Assembly: GCA_934120635.1 (NCBI GenBank)
Contig: CAKOUR010000003.1
Coordinates: 29,203-93,202 of the forward strand
DNA: 64,000 nucleotides
DNA from: an uncultured Bacilli bacterium
Lineage (GTDB): Bacteria > Bacillota_I > Bacilli_A > RF39 > UBA660
Reading direction: 5' to 3'
Positions 3,451-26,156 of the stretch are shown in pieces (position 1 is the stretch's first letter; every line of letters starts with the position of its first letter). Under the pieces are notes generated by a model. The model was not told the DNA's origin, made no database searches, and was given only the letters and a program-made list of their open reading frames with translations. The translations under genes were made by a program, and so were the position numbers.

Positions 3451-4872
3451 CTAGATAATTTCTTTCTTTTCTAGAATATATCCTTTAGGATTTTCTTGAC
3501 TCTTTTTCTTTAATGTTAGACTTTTATATGCTGCTGGTTCTTGATTAATTTTGCTAAATGGTTCTTTGAATAGATTATCCACACAACCAATTAAGGCTCT
3601 TGCTCCTGTATCATTTTTGATGGCTTCTTTGGCTAAATCTTGATAAACTTCTTCATCAATTTGGAGCTTTATTTTTAAATCATTTAATATTTGGATTTTG
3701 GATTGGATAGTTTGGTTATGAGGATTTTTTAAGATTTGAATAAGATTTTCTTCTGTTAATGGGTTTAGTTCAATGATATTAGGAAGTCTACCAATTAATT
3801 CTTTTTTGATTCCATATTGATATAAATCTTCTGTGGTAATTGGTTCTTTCTGTTTTATTAATGATTCTTTTTGTTGAAATCCTATTGTTTTTTTCTTTTC
3901 TTGTTTTTTCTTTCGTAATCCAGTGAAAGCACCTGAAGCAATTACGGTAATATTTTTAGTACTTAAGGTAACATAATTAGGAAATAAAACATCTCCTAAA
4001 TTAATTCTGTATTCTCCATCTTCTAAAAGTTTTAAGAGTTCATCTTGGATGGAGGCTGTTCCTATTTGGGCATTAGCTTCTATGGTTGTACTAGCTTTTT
4101 TATCAATTTCATCAATGAAAATAATTCCTCTACTAGCTTTTGCAATATCGTTATTAGCTTTTTCAATCAGTTGCTTTAAAATATCTTCGATATTTCCTCC
4201 TTGATATCCAGATGCTGTTAGTGATGTAGCGTCTGTGATTACGGTAGGAACATTCAAACTTTTAGCAATATTTCTAATAATTTCTGTCTTTCCTACTCCT
4301 GATGGTCCAATAAGTAAAATATTATTTTTTACTTCACTTTTAGAATTTTGCCATAGGATAGAAACAATATCATCAATTGCTTTATCTTGACCAATGATTT
4401 TATCTTTTAGCTCAGTAACTAATTTTTTTGCATCAAATAATTCTTCTCTTTTTAAAATCTTTTTTGCTAATGGTAAATCTGCATCTACTGTATAATAGGG
4501 ATTAGGATTATGAGGTGTAAAGCAATATAGTGCTACATTATCATAATCTCCAATTTTAGGAACGGAAAATAAATATTTAAAATTTTTTATGACTTCAAAG
4601 TATCCTAAGGCGTAATTTTTGATGTATTCTTTGGGAGATGCTTTGATTAATTTTTGATCTTCTTTTGGGATAATAATCTTTTGCCGAAGTCCATAACCAT
4701 AGTTTTGTTCTAAATCTAACATGTAATTATACTTTTTTCCACTTATTGTAATGAATTCTTCTGTTGTTTCATCTTTTTTACCTACTACTACATGATGAGG
4801 GATATAGTTTAAAATTCCATTGGCTAATCTTTTTTTCTTGAATATAATTGCCACTTCTAAATTAGTTTTCAT
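3451..4872 (-). CDS. ClpX-family AAA+ ATPase with non-canonical N-terminal domain
   Basis: Walker A GPSGVGKT, GYQG (ClpX GYVG pore loop position), Walker B IIFIDEIDK, IGF tripeptide (KTIGFQQ), LIGRLP, sensor-2 GARAL; no C4 zinc-finger N-domain; start overlaps aspS stop by 11 nt. Confidence 0.7.
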   Translation of the reverse strand: MKTNLEVAIIFKKKRLANGILNYIPHHVVVGKKDETTEEFITISGKKYNYMLDLEQNYGYGLRQKIIIPKEDQKLIKASPKEYIKNYALGYFEVIKNFKYLFSVPKIGDYDNVALYCFTPHNPNPYYTVDADLPLAKKILKREELFDAKKLVTELKDKIIGQDKAIDDIVSILWQNSKSEVKNNILLIGPSGVGKTEIIRNIAKSLNVPTVITDATSLTASGYQGGNIEDILKQLIEKANNDIAKASRGIIFIDEIDKKASTTIEANAQIGTASIQDELLKLLEDGEYRINLGDVLFPNYVTLSTKNITVIASGAFTGLRKKKQEKKKTIGFQQKESLIKQKEPITTEDLYQYGIKKELIGRLPNIIELNPLTEENLIQILKNPHNQTIQSKIQILNDLKIKLQIDEEVYQDLAKEAIKNDTGARALIGCVDNLFKEPFSKINQEPAAYKSLTLKKKSQENPKGYILEKKEII

Positions 4873-20168: not shown

Positions 20169-20915
20169 ATGAATACTATTGAAATTGCTTTTCTTTTAAC
20201 GATATTAGCAGGATTTTCTACGATGTTTGGATTAATACCTATTTTTTTTAAGATATCTAATATTAATAAATTTATTGCTGGATGTCTTGCTTTTGCTAGT
20301 GGTGTTATGTTTTGCTTATCTATTACTGATTTAATTCCTGAGTCTATTTCGTTAATTCAAAAATATGTTTCTGATTTTGAGACTTTACTTTTGGTTTTTG
20401 GATTTATAATGATTGGGGTATTTCTTTCTTCTTTTATTCGAAAGAAGGTGGATAATGGGTGTAATCAATCTTCTTTATTTAAAGTAGGAATTATTTCAAT
20501 GATTGCGATTGTTTTACATAATATTCCTGAAGGAATTGCTACTTTTATTTCTACAACAAAAAACACAAGTCTTGGTATTTCCTTAGCTATTGCGATAGCT
20601 TTACATAATATTCCAGAGGGTATTTCTATTTCTGTTCCGATTTATTATTCTACAAAGAAAAAATCAAGAGCATTTTTCTATACTCTTGTTTCTGCTTTGT
20701 CTGAACCATTTGGTGCTGTTATTACTTATCTTTTTTTAATGCCTATTATTAATAATTTTATTTTGGGGTTATTGTTTGCTTCTATTGCTGGAATTATGAT
20801 TTCTATTTCTATTTTGGAATTGCTCCCCTCTTCTTTTGAATATTCTTATTTTAATATTTCTAGATGGTGTTTTGGTATAGGAATTGCTTTTATGTTATTG
20901 AAGTTTTTCTTTTAA
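20169..20915 (+). CDS. zupT: ZIP-family zinc transporter
   Basis: 248 aa polytopic; duplicated HNIPEGIA / HNIPEGIS metal-binding motifs. Confidence 0.85.
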   Translation: MNTIEIAFLLTILAGFSTMFGLIPIFFKISNINKFIAGCLAFASGVMFCLSITDLIPESISLIQKYVSDFETLLLVFGFIMIGVFLSSFIRKKVDNGCNQSSLFKVGIISMIAIVLHNIPEGIATFISTTKNTSLGISLAIAIALHNIPEGISISVPIYYSTKKKSRAFFYTLVSALSEPFGAVITYLFLMPIINNFILGLLFASIAGIMISISILELLPSSFEYSYFNISRWCFGIGIAFMLLKFFF

Positions 20916-20916
20916 A

Positions 20917-21267
20917 TTAATGTTTTGGTTTTAAAAATAAGCATAATATAAATGCTGATACTAAGGCAATACTAATTCCAGCGCTGGTTAAGTTAAATGT
21001 TCCGGTGGCTAATCCTAATGGTCCAATTTTTCCTGCAGTATCCATTGCACTATGTATAAGTAAATGACCAAAAGATGTAATAGGAATAATTGCTCCTGCT
21101 CCACAATATAAAACAAATTTGTCATATATTCCAAAAACATCTAAAAATGCGCCTATTACTACAAATAAGGATGTTACGTGTCCTGGTGTAAGTTTAGTAT
21201 TATCTAATATTAATTGTGAAATTAAACATATTGTTCCACAAAATAAAAATGAATTTAAATAAATCAT
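20917..21267 (-). CDS. spoVAE: Stage V sporulation protein AE (SpoVAEB type)
   Basis: 116 aa membrane protein with GAGAIIPITSFGH motif; follows spoVAD with a 4-nt overlap. Confidence 0.85.
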   Translation of the reverse strand: MIYLNSFLFCGTICLISQLILDNTKLTPGHVTSLFVVIGAFLDVFGIYDKFVLYCGAGAIIPITSFGHLLIHSAMDTAGKIGPLGLATGTFNLTSAGISIALVSAFILCLFLKPKH

Positions 21268-22259
21268 TCTACTGCCTCCAAACTTATTGCATGTGCTATT
21301 GCTGGAAGAGATTCTTTTTGAAAATATATAGTAGGAGAAAATAATGCTCCTGTTGGAACGATTAAGACATGTTTTAGCTTTTTTTCTTTTAATTGCTGAT
21401 AAATATAACTAAAGTTTACTAATGCACTACATGCTGGTCCTGAGCCACCTGCTAAAACTGGTTGTTTTTTTATATCATATAGCATTGTTCCACAATCATT
21501 ATATTGTTTAGAAATATCTAAATTATATACTTTTTTTAAATATTCTATTAAAATTTTTTTTCCATATTTTCCTAAGTCACCAGTTAAAATTAAGTCATAA
21601 TAGTCGGGGGTTCTTTTTAAACTTGTTAAATGTTCATATATGGTTTCTGCCGCTGCTGGTGCCATTACTGCTCCCATATGGTTTACATCTTTAGTTCCTT
21701 TATCAATAATTTTTCCTATGGTAGAGGACTCTATTTTTACTTTTGTTTTTTCGTTTGTTAGAAGAATTGCTGCTCCTCCTGTTGATGTAAATGTTGAAGT
21801 TTCTGGTTTAAGGGTTCCGTATTCGGTGGGATTTCGGTATTGTTTTTCTGCTGTCGCATTGTGGCTTACTGTTGATACAATACAATTTTTAGTTTTTTTT
21901 CCTTCGATAAAATTTGCAGCAATAATCATTCCTTCACTACTGGTGGCACAAGCGTTATAAATCCCTAAAAAAGGTATACTTAGTTCTCTTATAGCATAGT
22001 TACTTGATACAATTTGATTGGTTAAATCTCCTGAAATAATTAAGTCAATTTCACTTTCTTTTTTTCTGGCTTTTTTTAATAATATATTAATAGTATCTTT
22101 TAATAATTTTATTTCAGCTTTTTCCCAACTTTTTTCTCCAAAGTATAAATCTTTTGTATAGGTTTTATCAAAATAACTTTTTAAAGGACCGTTAGCTTCA
22201 TATATTCCTGCATAAGTGGATGTTTCTTTGATAAATACATTTTTATAAGTTGTAGTCAT
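21264..22259 (-). CDS. spoVAD: Stage V sporulation protein AD
   Basis: 331 aa thiolase-like; SHNATAEKQYRNPTEYG, MAPAAAETI, DLILTGDLG, IVPTGALFSPT match SpoVAD. Confidence 0.9.
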   Translation of the reverse strand: MTTTYKNVFIKETSTYAGIYEANGPLKSYFDKTYTKDLYFGEKSWEKAEIKLLKDTINILLKKARKKESEIDLIISGDLTNQIVSSNYAIRELSIPFLGIYNACATSSEGMIIAANFIEGKKTKNCIVSTVSHNATAEKQYRNPTEYGTLKPETSTFTSTGGAAILLTNEKTKVKIESSTIGKIIDKGTKDVNHMGAVMAPAAAETIYEHLTSLKRTPDYYDLILTGDLGKYGKKILIEYLKKVYNLDISKQYNDCGTMLYDIKKQPVLAGGSGPACSALVNFSYIYQQLKEKKLKHVLIVPTGALFSPTIYFQKESLPAIAHAISLEAVE

Positions 22260-22261
22260 TT

Positions 22262-22702
22262 TTATCCTCCTATAATTAATATTCTTAATATTCCAAATAA
22301 ATAAACTGCTACTACACCATATAGTAATACTGATCCTGCTAATTTAAATATATTTGAGCCTATTCCTAATATTAATCCTTCGTTTTTATATTCTATTGCT
22401 GCTGATGTTATAGAATGAGCAAATCCTGTAATAGGAATAATTAATGCACTTTTTACTTTTGATACTAAAATATCAAATATTCCTAATGCAGTTAAGATAG
22501 ATGCTACTATTATTAAAGTTAATATAACTAATATTCCTGATTCTTTTCTTGGTAAGTGTAAGAAAAACATATAAAGTTCTAGAAGTATTTCACTAAAAAG
22601 TCCAAGAAGTCCACCTACTAGGAATGCTATTAATCCATTTTTTGCCACTTTTGGTTTAGGAGTATACTTTTTAATAAATTCTTGATATTCTTGATTTTTC
22701 AT
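22262..22702 (-). CDS. spoVAC: Stage V sporulation protein AC
   Basis: 146 aa; AFLVGGL, ITGFAHSITSAAIEYKNEGLILGIGSNIFKLAGSV closely match SpoVAC. Confidence 0.9.
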   Translation of the reverse strand: MKNQEYQEFIKKYTPKPKVAKNGLIAFLVGGLLGLFSEILLELYMFFLHLPRKESGILVILTLIIVASILTALGIFDILVSKVKSALIIPITGFAHSITSAAIEYKNEGLILGIGSNIFKLAGSVLLYGVVAVYLFGILRILIIGG

Positions 22703-22716
22703 ATTTTCACCATTTA

Positions 22717-22745
22717 TAATATGAACTCTTTATTTAAAATTATGT
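22717..22745 (-). promoter_or_regulatory. Candidate forespore (sigma-G/F type) promoter for spoVAC
   Basis: Minus strand ACATA, 17-nt spacer, CATATTA (consensus GHATR-N17/18-CATnnTA); it lies very close to the SD, which lowers confidence. Confidence 0.3.
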
Positions 22746-22778
22746 AAAAAAACAATGAAGTTTATTTTTCTTCATTGT
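22745..22778 (-). terminator. Rho-independent terminator after xre
   Basis: Perfect 9-bp stem ACAATGAAG / CTTCATTGT, 9-nt loop containing the stop codon, followed by TTTTTTT on the minus strand. Confidence 0.65.
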
Positions 22779-23016
22779 CTATTCCTTTTACTAATGTTTC
22801 AAGATTAATTCCTAAAACATTTGCTATTTGAACTAAAGTATCTACTGAGAAATACTTTTTCCCGTTAGGAGCTTCGATTCTTCTTATAAACTCGTGTGAG
22901 TAATGTGCTCTATCGGCGAGTTCTGCTTGTGTAATCTTTGCTTCCTTGCGATATTTTTTGATATTTGCTGCAATAATTTCATAAATATCTTCATTTCTTC
23001 TATGCGTTGTCCCCAT
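22762..23016 (-). CDS. XRE-family helix-turn-helix transcriptional regulator
   Basis: 84 aa; IKKYRKEAKITQAELADRAHYSHEFIRRIE is a Cro/C1-type HTH. Confidence 0.8.
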   Translation of the reverse strand: MGTTHRRNEDIYEIIAANIKKYRKEAKITQAELADRAHYSHEFIRRIEAPNGKKYFSVDTLVQIANVLGINLETLVKGIDNEEK

Positions 23017-23062
23017 TTGTTCATCACCTAATTTTTATTCTCTCACAAAATCAAGTTTTTTT

Positions 23063-23083
23063 ATGTAACCAATTCGGTTACAT
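23063..23083. promoter_or_regulatory. Perfect 8-5-8 palindrome, candidate operator of the XRE regulator
   Basis: ATGTAACC AATTC GGTTACAT, 19 nt after the sigF stop and about 47 nt before the xre start; no U-tract in the minus-strand sense, so not a canonical terminator. Confidence 0.4.
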
Positions 23084-23101
23084 TTTTACCATTTCCTTAT
23101 T

Positions 23102-23782
23102 TTATAAGGGTTTACAAAGGTTATTTTTTAACTTTTTTAGTATTTTTTTCTCATTTCTAGAGATTTGAACTTGATTTGTACCAAAAAATTTAGCTATTTC
23201 GCTTTGGGTTTTATCTTCAAAGTATCTTAAATTGATTAATTCATATTCTTCATTTGTTAATGATTTTAACCCTTCTTGTAAAGAAATGTTTTCAATATAT
23301 TGTTCGCTATCTGAATAATGATCAGCGATTTTATCTAATAAGGTTAATTTTTTACCATCTTCCATAATTACTTCATCGAGACTTTTAACATTGTTTTGGC
23401 ATTTGATAACATCGTTAATTATAGTTTCTTCTATTTCTAAGAAAAAAGAAAGCTCTTTAGTAGTTGGTTCTTTCATTAATTTTTGTGTCAATAAAGTTCT
23501 AGCTTCCAAGATTTTTTTATATAAACTATAATAATCTCTTGATACTTTAATAAGGTTTGACTTTTTAACATATGCTAATACTTCTCCTAAAATATATTTA
23601 TACATATAAGTAGTTAATTTTACATTTTTATTTTTATCAAAACTTTTATATGCTTTCATTATGCCAATTATACTTACTTGATATAAATCATCGAATTCAT
23701 AATATTTGGTATATTTATTAATGATAGAACAGATTAATCCTTTATTTTCTTTAATTAAATTAAGTAATATTGTATCATTCAT
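23102..23782 (-). CDS. sigF: Sporulation sigma factor, SigF/SigG type
   Basis: 226 aa; IKVSRDYYSLYKKI, LTLLDKIAD and region 4.2 DKTQSEIAKFFGTNQVQISRNEKKILKKLK align well to B. subtilis SigF; follows a STAS gene and precedes spoVA as in Bacillus. Confidence 0.72.
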   Translation of the reverse strand: MNDTILLNLIKENKGLICSIINKYTKYYEFDDLYQVSIIGIMKAYKSFDKNKNVKLTTYMYKYILGEVLAYVKKSNLIKVSRDYYSLYKKILEARTLLTQKLMKEPTTKELSFFLEIEETIINDVIKCQNNVKSLDEVIMEDGKKLTLLDKIADHYSDSEQYIENISLQEGLKSLTNEEYELINLRYFEDKTQSEIAKFFGTNQVQISRNEKKILKKLKNNLCKPL

Positions 23783-23818
23783 AAAAACCCTTCTTGCTAT
23801 TATCTAGATATTCCTTTT

Positions 23819-24124
23819 CTAAAGATAAGAAAATACGTCTAATTCTGTCTCAAGATTTGGAAGAAAATTTTGAAATAATCTACTTTTCTTTTGATCATAG
23901 ATAATGAATAATTTTTTCTCTTTTCTAGTTTCTTTAAAATTAGTTATTTCTTTTATTTGATTTACTGAAATTGAATCTAATTTTTTTAGGTTAAATACTA
24001 TTTTTTTAATTCCTAATTCGTCAATTATATTTAATATTTCTTTTATTTTTCTTTCATTATCGTTCCTCCCTATTATTCTTACAAAAAATACTCCTTTTCG
24101 ATATTCTGTACTAATTTTTAACAT
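23819..24124 (-). CDS. spoIIAA: STAS-domain anti-anti-sigma factor, SpoIIAA-like
   Basis: About 101 aa; IVFNLKKLDSISVNQ aligns to IVLNLEDLSFMDSSGLG of SpoIIAA with the serine retained; start set to ATG 24124 after AAGGGTGA (the track uses an upstream GTG). Confidence 0.55.
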   Translation of the reverse strand: MLKISTEYRKGVFFVRIIGRNDNERKIKEILNIIDELGIKKIVFNLKKLDSISVNQIKEITNFKETRKEKKLFIIYDQKKSRLFQNFLPNLETELDVFSYL

Positions 24125-24245
24125 GTAATTCACCCTTTGCTATTTTAATTTATCATATAAATATTGTTGAAGAAAGTAATTCGACAATACTAGTTATTTT
24201 TTTTAATATCTATTATTTGACAAATAATTCTCTTCTAATTATATT

Positions 24246-24271
24246 ATTCTTTGTTGATATAGAAAAATCCT
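24246..24271 (-). promoter_or_regulatory. Candidate sigma-H-like promoter upstream of the spoIIAA-like gene
   Basis: Minus strand AGGATTT (24271-24265) and AAAGAAT (GAAT at 24249-24246); the spacer is about 1 nt longer than the consensus. Confidence 0.3.
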
Positions 24272-24287
24272 TCTTTTTTTAATAAAT

Positions 24288-24317
24288 ATGAAAAAAGAAG
24301 TAACGATAATTACTTCT
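24288..24317 (-). terminator. Rho-independent terminator after holA
   Basis: Stem AGAAGTAA / TTACTTCT (8 bp), loop TTATCG, followed by TTTTTT on the minus strand. Confidence 0.65.
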
Positions 24318-24325
24318 AATGAAAT

Positions 24326-25258
24326 TTATTGTAGAATAAATAATTTTAGGGCTAAGTTTTTGTCCATTATTCCTAATTTTATGTCGTGGTCAATTTTGGC
24401 TAATTTTTTAATGTTTTCTAAGATCATACTTTCAGAATAAGAATAGATTTTTTTAATGCTATATTTTACTCTGTATGGGTTTACTTCTAAAATTTTTGCA
24501 ATTTCTGTTTCTGATTTATTTTTGTTTAATAATCTTTTTACTTGAAATAAAAAATGAAATTGATTAGCTAATAAAAGAATTATTTGTATTTCATCATAGT
24601 TGACATTTAGAAAACTTTCTAGTAAATCTAATGCTTTTTTAGTATTTTTTAAGATAATAGCATCAGTTAGAGAAAATATTTCTTCTTCTAGTGTTTTTGT
24701 TGTTGTTTTTGTAATATCTTCGTTGGTAATTTTTTTTGTTTTTAATGTATACATTTTTAATTTATCTAGTTCATTATCAATATTATTTAAATTTGTTCCT
24801 ACTCTTTCTAGAAAAAAGTTTATGTCATCTATTTTATAATTATCTTCTTTTAATTTATCATTAATATATTTTGTTAAAAATGATTTATCTGCTTTATTTG
24901 CTTCTATTACTTTGTGACTTGCTAATAATTTATTTATTTTTTTTCTAGAATCTAATTTTTCAGCATTACAGATAAAAATTAAATAACTATCAGAATTATA
25001 ATGTTCTATATAGTGTTCTAATTTTTCTAGATTGTCGATTGTTTTATTGGCTCCTAAGAAGAAGCTGTCTTCTAAAATGATGATTTTTTTCTTATTAAAT
25101 AGATCTACAGTTGATGCATCTTCTACTACATCTTCTATTAATGTATTTGACATATCATATTTTATTAAATCTGCATCTTTTAAAGAGTTTATAATTTTTT
25201 TTATTTCATTTTTTATTAGGCCTTTATTTATTCCGTATATTACATAAAAATTTTCCAT
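24326..25258 (-). CDS. holA: DNA polymerase III delta subunit
   Basis: 310 aa; length and N-terminal YVIYGINKGLI...IILEDSFFL pattern typical of HolA. Confidence 0.7.
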   Translation of the reverse strand: MENFYVIYGINKGLIKNEIKKIINSLKDADLIKYDMSNTLIEDVVEDASTVDLFNKKKIIILEDSFFLGANKTIDNLEKLEHYIEHYNSDSYLIFICNAEKLDSRKKINKLLASHKVIEANKADKSFLTKYINDKLKEDNYKIDDINFFLERVGTNLNNIDNELDKLKMYTLKTKKITNEDITKTTTKTLEEEIFSLTDAIILKNTKKALDLLESFLNVNYDEIQIILLLANQFHFLFQVKRLLNKNKSETEIAKILEVNPYRVKYSIKKIYSYSESMILENIKKLAKIDHDIKLGIMDKNLALKLFILQ

Positions 25259-25259
25259 A

Positions 25260-26156
25260 TTATTGTCCTAATCTTTCTTGACATGAGTAGCCATCTGCTT
25301 TCTCTCTTGATAATGCTTCTTCGTAATTTGTTGGCTTGTTATAGCTGGAATCTACTATTGTTTTTAAATTTGTTTTAAATATATTATTTTCTTCATCTTG
25401 AGAAAATGAACTATTTTTTTCATCTTCTTCTATATATTTGTTAAAAGTTCCGTTTTGGATAAAATCTTGGTAAGAGTCTTTAGATGAAAATTGGTATTCT
25501 TTTGTTCTTTCAATATATTCTAGGTTTTCTTGGAGAGAAAAATGATAAGTATTTTCTTCTTTTATTTTTGCATCTAGAGTATTGCTTTGATATTCTTTAG
25601 TACAAATAAATGTTTTAATGCTATCTTTTACTTCAGTTGTCTTATCGTTATTTTTTGTCATGAAGAAATAAATACTTCCGCCTATTAAAATAATTAATAA
25701 AAGAAAAGTTATTTTGTGAAAAATTTTTTTCTTAGGCTTTATACTTTGGTTTTCTATTTCTTCCTTTTTGGGTTTAGGTATAGTTAAATTAATTAAGCTT
25801 TTTAAAACATCTTCTTTTACTTCTATTTTATTTGAACCAATAATTTCTATTTCTTCAATTGAGTCTAAAGAAATAAATTCAAAATCTTTAGTTGGTTCTT
25901 GGTTTATTATTTTGAAGATATATTCTTTAACTATTTCTTCTTCTTCTTTTTTTGTGGTTGCTAATGATAGTATTGAATTATTCTTGATATAACTACTTCC
26001 ATAAGAAATATAATTATATGTTGGATTTGGATCTGAATAAATGATATATAGATTATTGTTCTTAGTATATTTAAAAACTCCGTATACATTAACATATCTA
26101 TCGGTTGCTCCAAAAGTTAAATTATATTCTACTACTTTTAATACTTTTCCGTTCAT
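25260..26156 (-). CDS. Hypothetical single-pass membrane protein (298 aa)
   Basis: Central TM ITFLLLIILIGGSIYFF; ends 2 nt before holA; no family recognised. Confidence 0.55.
   Translation of the reverse strand: MNGKVLKVVEYNLTFGATDRYVNVYGVFKYTKNNNLYIIYSDPNPTYNYISYGSSYIKNNSILSLATTKKEEEEIVKEYIFKIINQEPTKDFEFISLDSIEEIEIIGSNKIEVKEDVLKSLINLTIPKPKKEEIENQSIKPKKKIFHKITFLLLIILIGGSIYFFMTKNNDKTTEVKDSIKTFICTKEYQSNTLDAKIKEENTYHFSLQENLEYIERTKEYQFSSKDSYQDFIQNGTFNKYIEEDEKNSSFSQDEENNIFKTNLKTIVDSSYNKPTNYEEALSREKADGYSCQERLGQ

Follow-up and report, generated by a model that had tools for sequence, protein, structure and literature searches.

According to the textbook mechanism, a switch formed by SpoIIAA, SpoIIAB and SpoIIE keeps sigma F active in the forespore only, and in the canonical spoIIA operon the first two genes lie next to sigF in the order spoIIAA-spoIIAB-sigF. 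A precedent for STAS proteins lacking the phosphorylated serine of such switches is mycobacterial RsfA, an anti-anti-sigma factor that is regulated without phosphorylation; the mycobacterial system, however, retains a HATPase-type anti-sigma factor, UsfX, and none was found in the lineage of the present study. To this lineage belongs the stretch of 64,000 nucleotides analysed here (the window) from an uncultured Bacilli bacterium of order RF39 and family UBA660 (contig CAKOUR010000003.1 of assembly GCA_934120635.1), in which spoIIAA-like, sigF and spoVA genes are retained and spoIIAB is missing. The assembly, of which the window occupies part of contig 3, totals 1.34 Mb in 25 contigs and is 92% complete; close relatives are Hadza and other gut metagenome-assembled genomes, and the gene content, too, points to order RF39 as the probable placement. 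Compared with the canonical operon of Bacillus, Clostridia and four loci of the same class (L014-L017), the window shares the position and order of spoIIAA, sigF and spoVAC, a Spo0A box about 60 nt upstream, a predicted STAS fold that matches SpoIIAA best and a sigma factor that groups with SigF in the tree. It differs in having no SpoIIAB, no SpoIIE and no phospho-acceptor serine, and in bearing a gene for an XRE-type regulator (xre) that was inserted in its subclade.

Part of this has been seen before. A survey of presence and absence of KEGG Orthology (KO) entries reported that spoIIAB and spoIIE are absent from RF39 or reduced there, and predicted spore formation with different regulation in this order (PMC10868615, Microb Genom 2024). 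Its text does not treat spoIIAA or sigF, its supplement has no KO rows for spoIIAA, spoIIAB or spoIIE, and the retention of an orphan STAS protein, the loss of its serine, the Spo0A box and the xre unit are left uncovered. The locus is a real lineage-wide variant of a well-known system, partly documented already, and what the window adds is an unusually degenerate STAS copy and a putative subclade-specific XRE regulon.

The features of the locus are as follows, all open reading frames (ORFs) of an earlier reading made from the letters alone (the original prediction) having been verified where it had placed them on the minus strand.

24326-25258, minus strand: holA (ORF)
24180-24186, minus strand: Spo0A box TGTCGAA, perfect, 62 nt upstream of the spoIIAA-like start codon
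23819-24124, minus strand: spoIIAA-like gene, 101 aa, predicted degenerate SpoIIAA orthologue; ATG at 24124 with the ribosome-binding site AAGGGTG before it
23783-23818, minus strand: 36-nt spacer at the site of spoIIAB in canonical operons; holds the sigF ribosome-binding site only
23102-23782, minus strand: sigF, 226 aa, diverged orthologue judged by its best model (spore_sigF) and the tree
23063-23083: operator-like palindrome ATGTAACC-N5-GGTTACAT, perfect, between sigF and xre
22762-23016, minus strand: xre, 84 aa, XRE/Cro-C1-type helix-turn-helix (HTH) protein (Pfam HTH_3)
22739-22784, minus strand: hairpin and U7 run over the xre stop codon, probable intrinsic terminator (folding)
22717-22745, minus strand: putative forespore-type (sigma G/F-like) motif for spoVAC, ACATA-17 nt-CATATTA (pattern match)
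22262-22702, minus strand: spoVAC (Pfam/NCBIfam)
21264-22259, minus strand: spoVAD (435.7 bits, above the cut-off)
20917-21267, minus strand: spoVAE (Pfam/NCBIfam)

Coordinates and Pfam/NCBIfam identities agree with the minus-strand order that had been proposed, in which the spoIIAA-like gene is followed by sigF, xre and spoVAC-spoVAD-spoVAE. The neighbourhood had also been proposed to be orthologous to spoIIA-spoVA, and this is borne out by same-class genomes, which share the order spoIIAA-spoIIAB-sigF-spoVAC: this ancestral order is present at L014, and the canonical layout is found at L014-L017. The 36 nt between the STAS and sigma genes leave, as had been noted, no room for spoIIAB. Judged by its gene order, the window locus is the canonical operon minus spoIIAB.

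To the claim that spoIIAB is missing and not relocated, genome-wide searches lend support at the level of the genome, the genus, the family and the order. In this genome, the models TIGR01925 and PF13581 (E ≤ 10) match only the ATPase domains of histidine kinases of 347-620 aa, and a profile built from four same-class SpoIIAB proteins and run with --max against all six-frame ORFs returns the same histidine kinases and nothing more. SpoIIAB was likewise not found in 17 congeners, none scored above the cut-off in 36 family genomes and one same-order genome, and none was detected at E ≤ 1e-15 among 121 genomes of the order, which represent 73 genera and are each at least 90% complete. Small HATPase-like ORFs in three relatives (G001:C24, G006:C15 and G019:C47) were considered as relics of SpoIIAB and rejected, as they are histidine kinases cut by contig ends. 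At locus L036, in another genus, an unusual non-coding spacer of 260 nt separates spoIIAA from sigF, and a search of this spacer for a SpoIIAB remnant found none. The search for a SpoIIE phosphatase that the original prediction had called for was negative as well: PF07228 and TIGR02865 have no match in this genome, and the PF07228 domain occurs in 0 of 41 family genomes. As a positive control, SpoIIAB was recovered in seven same-class genomes at 152-190 bits, and a SpoIIE-type protein in all four SpoIIAB-bearing controls tested (G042, G050, G054 and G056), one of which measures 0.9 Mb. A canonical spoIIAB elsewhere in the genome, which the original prediction had named as a finding that would count against it, was thus not recovered at any of these levels, and on these searches SpoIIAB is lost rather than moved.

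The sigma factor itself carries sigma-70 regions 2, 3 and 4. Among NCBIfam models, spore_sigF (TIGR02885) fits it best, at 181.8 bits, which is under the 321-bit cut-off, and SigG models reach 144-155 bits and the SigB model 80.6 bits. In a maximum-likelihood tree with sigma A as the outgroup and SigB sequences left out, the 33 sigma factors of the family cluster with four spoIIAB-adjacent SigF genes (SH-aLRT 89), and a separate SigG clade (SH-aLRT 94) holds this genome's own SigG. Of the placement among SigF, SigG and SigB that had been suggested as a check, the tree covers the part concerning canonical SigF and SigG, and the separation from SigB is by the model score only. On models and tree together, the window sigma factor is best read as a diverged SigF orthologue, not SigG. 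Within the genus, the ratio of nonsynonymous to synonymous substitution rates (dN/dS) is 0.06-0.11 for sigF and 0.04-0.13 for spoVAD. The separate SigG is encoded at G000:C23 (360 bits) with ylmC adjoining; moreover, the genome encodes Spo0A (272 bits, above the cut-off), spoIIGA-sigE, SpoIIR (139 bits) and SpoIVA, so that the backbone of the sporulation programme is present.

The gene upstream of sigF is best understood through its relatives. A spoIIAA-like gene was found by profile search in 36 of 41 family genomes, homologues across the family measuring 105-140 aa, and it lies directly upstream of a sigF-like gene, often overlapping it, in 28 of 30 loci. The family profile matches the SpoIIAA structures 1TH8_B, 1TID_B and 1AUZ along their entire length at E of about 1e-19, and Pfam STAS (PF01740) is matched by 28 of 30 family members. 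The 101-aa window protein taken alone matches no Pfam or NCBIfam family, PF01740 included, and its identity as a STAS protein comes from the family profile and the predicted fold. The AlphaFold2 model (pLDDT 88.9, pTM 0.81) has the STAS order of strands and helices with the third helix shortened; its best Foldseek match is SpoIIAA 1TID_B (template modelling score, TM, 0.79), and the second-best structural matches are the RsfB chains of the mycobacterial UsfX system with RsfA/RsfB (PDB 8IH8; TM 0.83-0.85).

It is also evident that the phospho-acceptor has not been kept. In the canonical motif D57-S58-S59-G60, the acceptor is the first serine after the aspartate, since 1TID_B reads MDASG where 1TH8_B has MDSSG. 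The window protein reads S53-V54-N55-Q56 at this motif, and an alignment of the family with four canonical SpoIIAA proteins places Val54 at the acceptor position. The original prediction had an acceptor serine retained; the residue that it pointed to, Ser51, is a phenylalanine in three congeners. Among 35 family members the acceptor column holds L in 9, I in 5, V in 4, E and D in 3 each, M, N, T and S in 2 each, and A, G and K in 1 each, so that a serine or threonine occurs in only 4 of the 35, and all four canonical same-class relatives read DSSG. That the acceptor serine is gone is consistent with the absence of kinase and phosphatase alike. Elsewhere in the motif, Asp57 is kept in 29 and Gly60 in 27 of the 35, and both are gone in this genus; the window protein has also diverged in the loops whose canonical SpoIIAA sequences are GELDHHT and DSSGLG. 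The spoIIAA-like gene has a dN/dS of 0.15-0.21 within the genus, which indicates that it is still under selection and not a pseudogene. Scores against the family profile range across genera from 150 down to 40 bits, and the best-conserved SpoIIAA-like gene of the family, at 150 bits, is that of locus L109 (G018:C28). By sequence and model, the 101-aa protein is a degenerate SpoIIAA orthologue that is predicted to be non-phosphorylatable.

Upstream of the STAS start codon, a TGNCGAA box lies within 160 nt in 34 of 41 orthologous loci, mostly at 55-66 nt, and the canonical loci L014 and L015 are included among these. The background is 0.007 boxes per 160 nt (58 boxes in 1.34 Mb). The box is usually TTTGTCGAA, and among the matches listed all read TGTCGAA; a weaker TGTCAAA is found about 38 nt further upstream of the box in the window. 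This motif makes the spoIIAA-sigF promoter putatively Spo0A-dependent. For spoVAC, a separate promoter of the forespore type had been suspected, and the ACATA-17-CATATTA element fits that suspicion as a pattern match; relatives keep G[TC]ATA-N17/18-CATAxTA upstream of spoVAC. The same forespore-type pattern precedes spoIIR in this genome, as GTATA-N18-CATGATT (L131:1400-1500, G000:C18).

The xre gene, which lies between sigF and spoVAC, encodes an 84-aa protein consisting of an HTH domain only (PF01381, 44.3 bits versus a cut-off of 23). It had been described as an autonomous unit on account of a perfect palindrome upstream and a terminator of its own, and both are in place: the palindrome stands at 23063-23083 as claimed, and the hairpin over the stop codon (-11.7 kcal/mol, z = -4.17; none of 200 shuffled sequences folded equally well) is followed by a U7 run. 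A consensus terminator scan found no site, the stem of this hairpin having too few G-C pairs for it. The palindrome was also considered as a terminator of sigF. This was rejected because an A-run, not a U-run, follows it on the coding strand; moreover, its arms are invariant, not covarying, across genera and between the two loci at which it occurs (see below).

The distribution of the unit is narrow. A xre gene between sigF and spoVAC is found only in the genus of the window and at L019, L027, L047, L053 and L079, and at most other family loci sigF is followed directly by spoVAC; the loci that bear xre form one subclade of the sigma tree (support 96). By this distribution, xre is a later, subclade-specific insertion. 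Because xre is confined to a subclade and the loss of spoIIAB is order-wide, xre is no general replacement for SpoIIAB. Of the genes at this locus it is under the strongest constraint (dN/dS 0.014-0.037), and in other parts of the family its homologues have unrelated gene neighbourhoods.

The palindrome (8+8) appears operator-like: its arms are invariant and its spacer is variable across six congeners and L019, a locus of another genus; L027 shows one mismatch. The exact sequence TGTAACC-N5-GGTTACA is present in 14 of 18 genomes of the genus and in the xre-bearing G020, and in 0 of 39 other family genomes, which include G026, G070 and G073 with a syntenic xre; a reversed-pattern control gave no matches. 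The palindrome was thus seen only in genomes that carry xre. This genome has a single further perfect copy, outside the window (G000:C2:97275-97293; L087, about 4276-4296), between sigE, with spoIIGA before it, and lonA, whose start is about 140 nt downstream. Five other genomes of the genus have the motif at this position too (L091, L094, L096, L098 and L102). The simplest interpretation is that XRE would act as an autoregulated repressor with a second candidate operator upstream of lonA. Cro/CI-type autoregulated repressors are likewise small HTH_3 proteins with a palindrome just upstream of their own gene; unlike these, xre is flanked by neither a toxin partner nor phage or mobile genes, it is set between sigF and spoVA, and its second site lies between sigE and lonA. 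The pair of putative operators at xre and lonA makes a small, testable candidate regulon in an uncultured organism.

Taken together, the gene identities, the absences, the loss of the serine, the selection on the remaining genes and the conservation of the motifs are best read as a kinase-less spoIIA-spoVA locus in genome-reduced gut Bacilli, with a Spo0A-box-driven spoIIAA-sigF operon and a later insertion of xre, and we put the probability of this reading at roughly 0.7 (0.72). Under it, spoIIAB would have been deleted from between spoIIAA and sigF, and spoIIE lost, no later than the base of the order. A Spo0A-box promoter would drive a two-gene operon for SigF and an orphan SpoIIAA with a STAS fold and no acceptor serine. 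As kinase, phosphatase and acceptor serine are all missing, the textbook partner switch would be unable to operate, which suggests that sigma F is controlled differently, most likely mainly by Spo0A-dependent transcription plus a further step. The orphan STAS protein may join in this further step, as it is still under purifying selection. XRE would be an HTH repressor that regulates its own gene, with TGTAACC-N5-GGTTACA as its binding site both at the xre promoter and upstream of lonA, and spoVAC-spoVAD-spoVAE would be transcribed separately from the forespore-type promoter. In a large and abundant order of the human and animal gut, Spo0A, all four sporulation sigma factors tested, SpoIIGA, SpoIIR, SpoIVA and SpoVA are retained, and the switch is gone; the lineage either sporulates with different control of sigma F or reveals which components can be done without. 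Handles for testing this are offered by the orphan STAS protein, the Spo0A box and sigF.

Several observations weigh against this reading. Three family genera, at L121 (G062), L122 (G034) and L123 (G031), have sigF without a spoIIAA-like gene, and in two of these three spoVAC-spoVAD lies directly downstream of sigF; in G018, the spoIIAA-like gene at L109 is followed by metK and is unlinked from sigF. In some lineages, then, the orphan STAS protein can be dispensed with or is independent of sigF. For xre, no sigma A, F, G, E or K promoter could be assigned, and upstream of it there is just a conserved TTTGTGAGAGAATAAA block; the best sigma-A-like promoter is about 100 nt downstream of the palindrome near lonA. 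The window STAS protein escapes Pfam, and an equally degenerate SpoIIAB could in principle escape too. Furthermore, that these uncultured organisms sporulate is a prediction from their genes.

A possible, if unlikely, alternative is that the orphan SpoIIAA has taken on a new role as a direct regulator of sigma F that is independent of phosphorylation, whether as an anti-sigma factor, a chaperone or an antagonist of a non-homologous anti-sigma factor; a switch at the protein level would then persist with new partners. The close and often overlapping association with sigF and the wide retention of the STAS gene in the family speak for such a role, as do its low dN/dS and the persistence of Asp57 and Gly60 of the old interaction loop in most family members despite the missing kinase. 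The gene has nevertheless been lost in three sigF-bearing genera and unlinked from sigF in a further genome, the two loop residues are gone in the very genus of the window, and the spread of profile scores across genera looks like relaxed constraint. Doubtful, too, is a more far-reaching version, according to which the first compartment-specific step would run order-wide without an anti-sigma kinase or phosphatase, a repurposed SpoIIAA would act on sigma F/RNA polymerase or through a non-homologous partner, and in the genus an XRE layer would link Lon proteolysis to the early sigma cascade. If true, this would be a second, independent solution to the problem of sigma F activation, with XRE sites downstream of both sigF and sigE, the latter upstream of lonA.

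We consider it distinctly improbable that sporulation is decaying in this lineage, such that spoIIAA, sigF and spoVA would be relics and the missing switch one step of the decay. Losses of this kind do occur nearby: two family genomes of 0.8 Mb (G024 and G061) have no sigma factor other than sigma A and presumably no longer sporulate, spoIIAA has disappeared from three genera, the STAS protein is strongly degenerate in several genera, and repeated loss of sporulation has been reported in related orders (PMC10868615). Against decay stand the purifying selection on sigF, spoVAD and the STAS gene, the Spo0A box and forespore-type promoters kept across dozens of genera, and the presence of Spo0A, SpoIIGA, SigE, SigG, SpoIIR and SpoIVA.

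There is very little to be said for a functional SpoIIAB and/or SpoIIE that was missed, either because it lies in the unassembled 8% of the genome or because it is too divergent for the models. The assembly is incomplete and in 25 contigs, and the window's own STAS protein is invisible to Pfam. Other family members, however, have an easily detected STAS protein and yet no SpoIIAB, which counters the concern about detection, and the same searches find both genes in reduced, AT-rich same-class genomes, which weakens this explanation further; the lineage-near SpoIIAB profile and the 260-nt spacer yielded no SpoIIAB, the truncated HATPase ORFs of relatives are histidine kinases, and neither SpoIIAB in the order-wide search nor a SpoIIE domain in the family-wide search was found. 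The least probable explanation, that XRE has replaced SpoIIAB as the regulator of sigma F, draws on the position of xre directly after sigF and on its having the lowest dN/dS of the locus, and is opposed by its restriction to one family subclade against an order-wide loss of spoIIAB, by its homologues in unrelated family contexts, and by a small HTH-only product which, together with the conserved DNA palindrome that matches it, is what one would expect of a DNA-binding repressor.

The reading of a kinase-less, Spo0A-box-driven spoIIAA-sigF operon leaves a few observations to be recorded on the surrounding genes and on the other sporulation genes of this genome. An Rfam search of window positions 20500-25500 at E ≤ 0.1 gave no match. 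In two genera, at L036 (G081) and L021 (G019), a SigE/SigK-like sigma gene lies directly upstream of spoIIAA-sigF. In the genome of the window, a break near residue 121-124, within the ATPase domain, divides spoIVA into two halves on different contigs (G000:C8:80141-80518, L133:1501-1878; and G000:C5:4920-6002, L132:1531-2613). A large serine recombinase of 456 aa is encoded directly upstream of the C-terminal part, an arrangement suggestive of a skin-like intervening element. spoIVA is broken at the same point in G004, G012 and G014 of the same genus and in G022, G026 and G027, and the gene is intact in most relatives. Finally, a 298-aa ORF at window positions 25260-26156 on the minus strand, between mutL and holA, has no Pfam or NCBIfam match; it is kept in congeners and evolves fast, with 53-89% identity and a dN/dS of 0.1-0.3.

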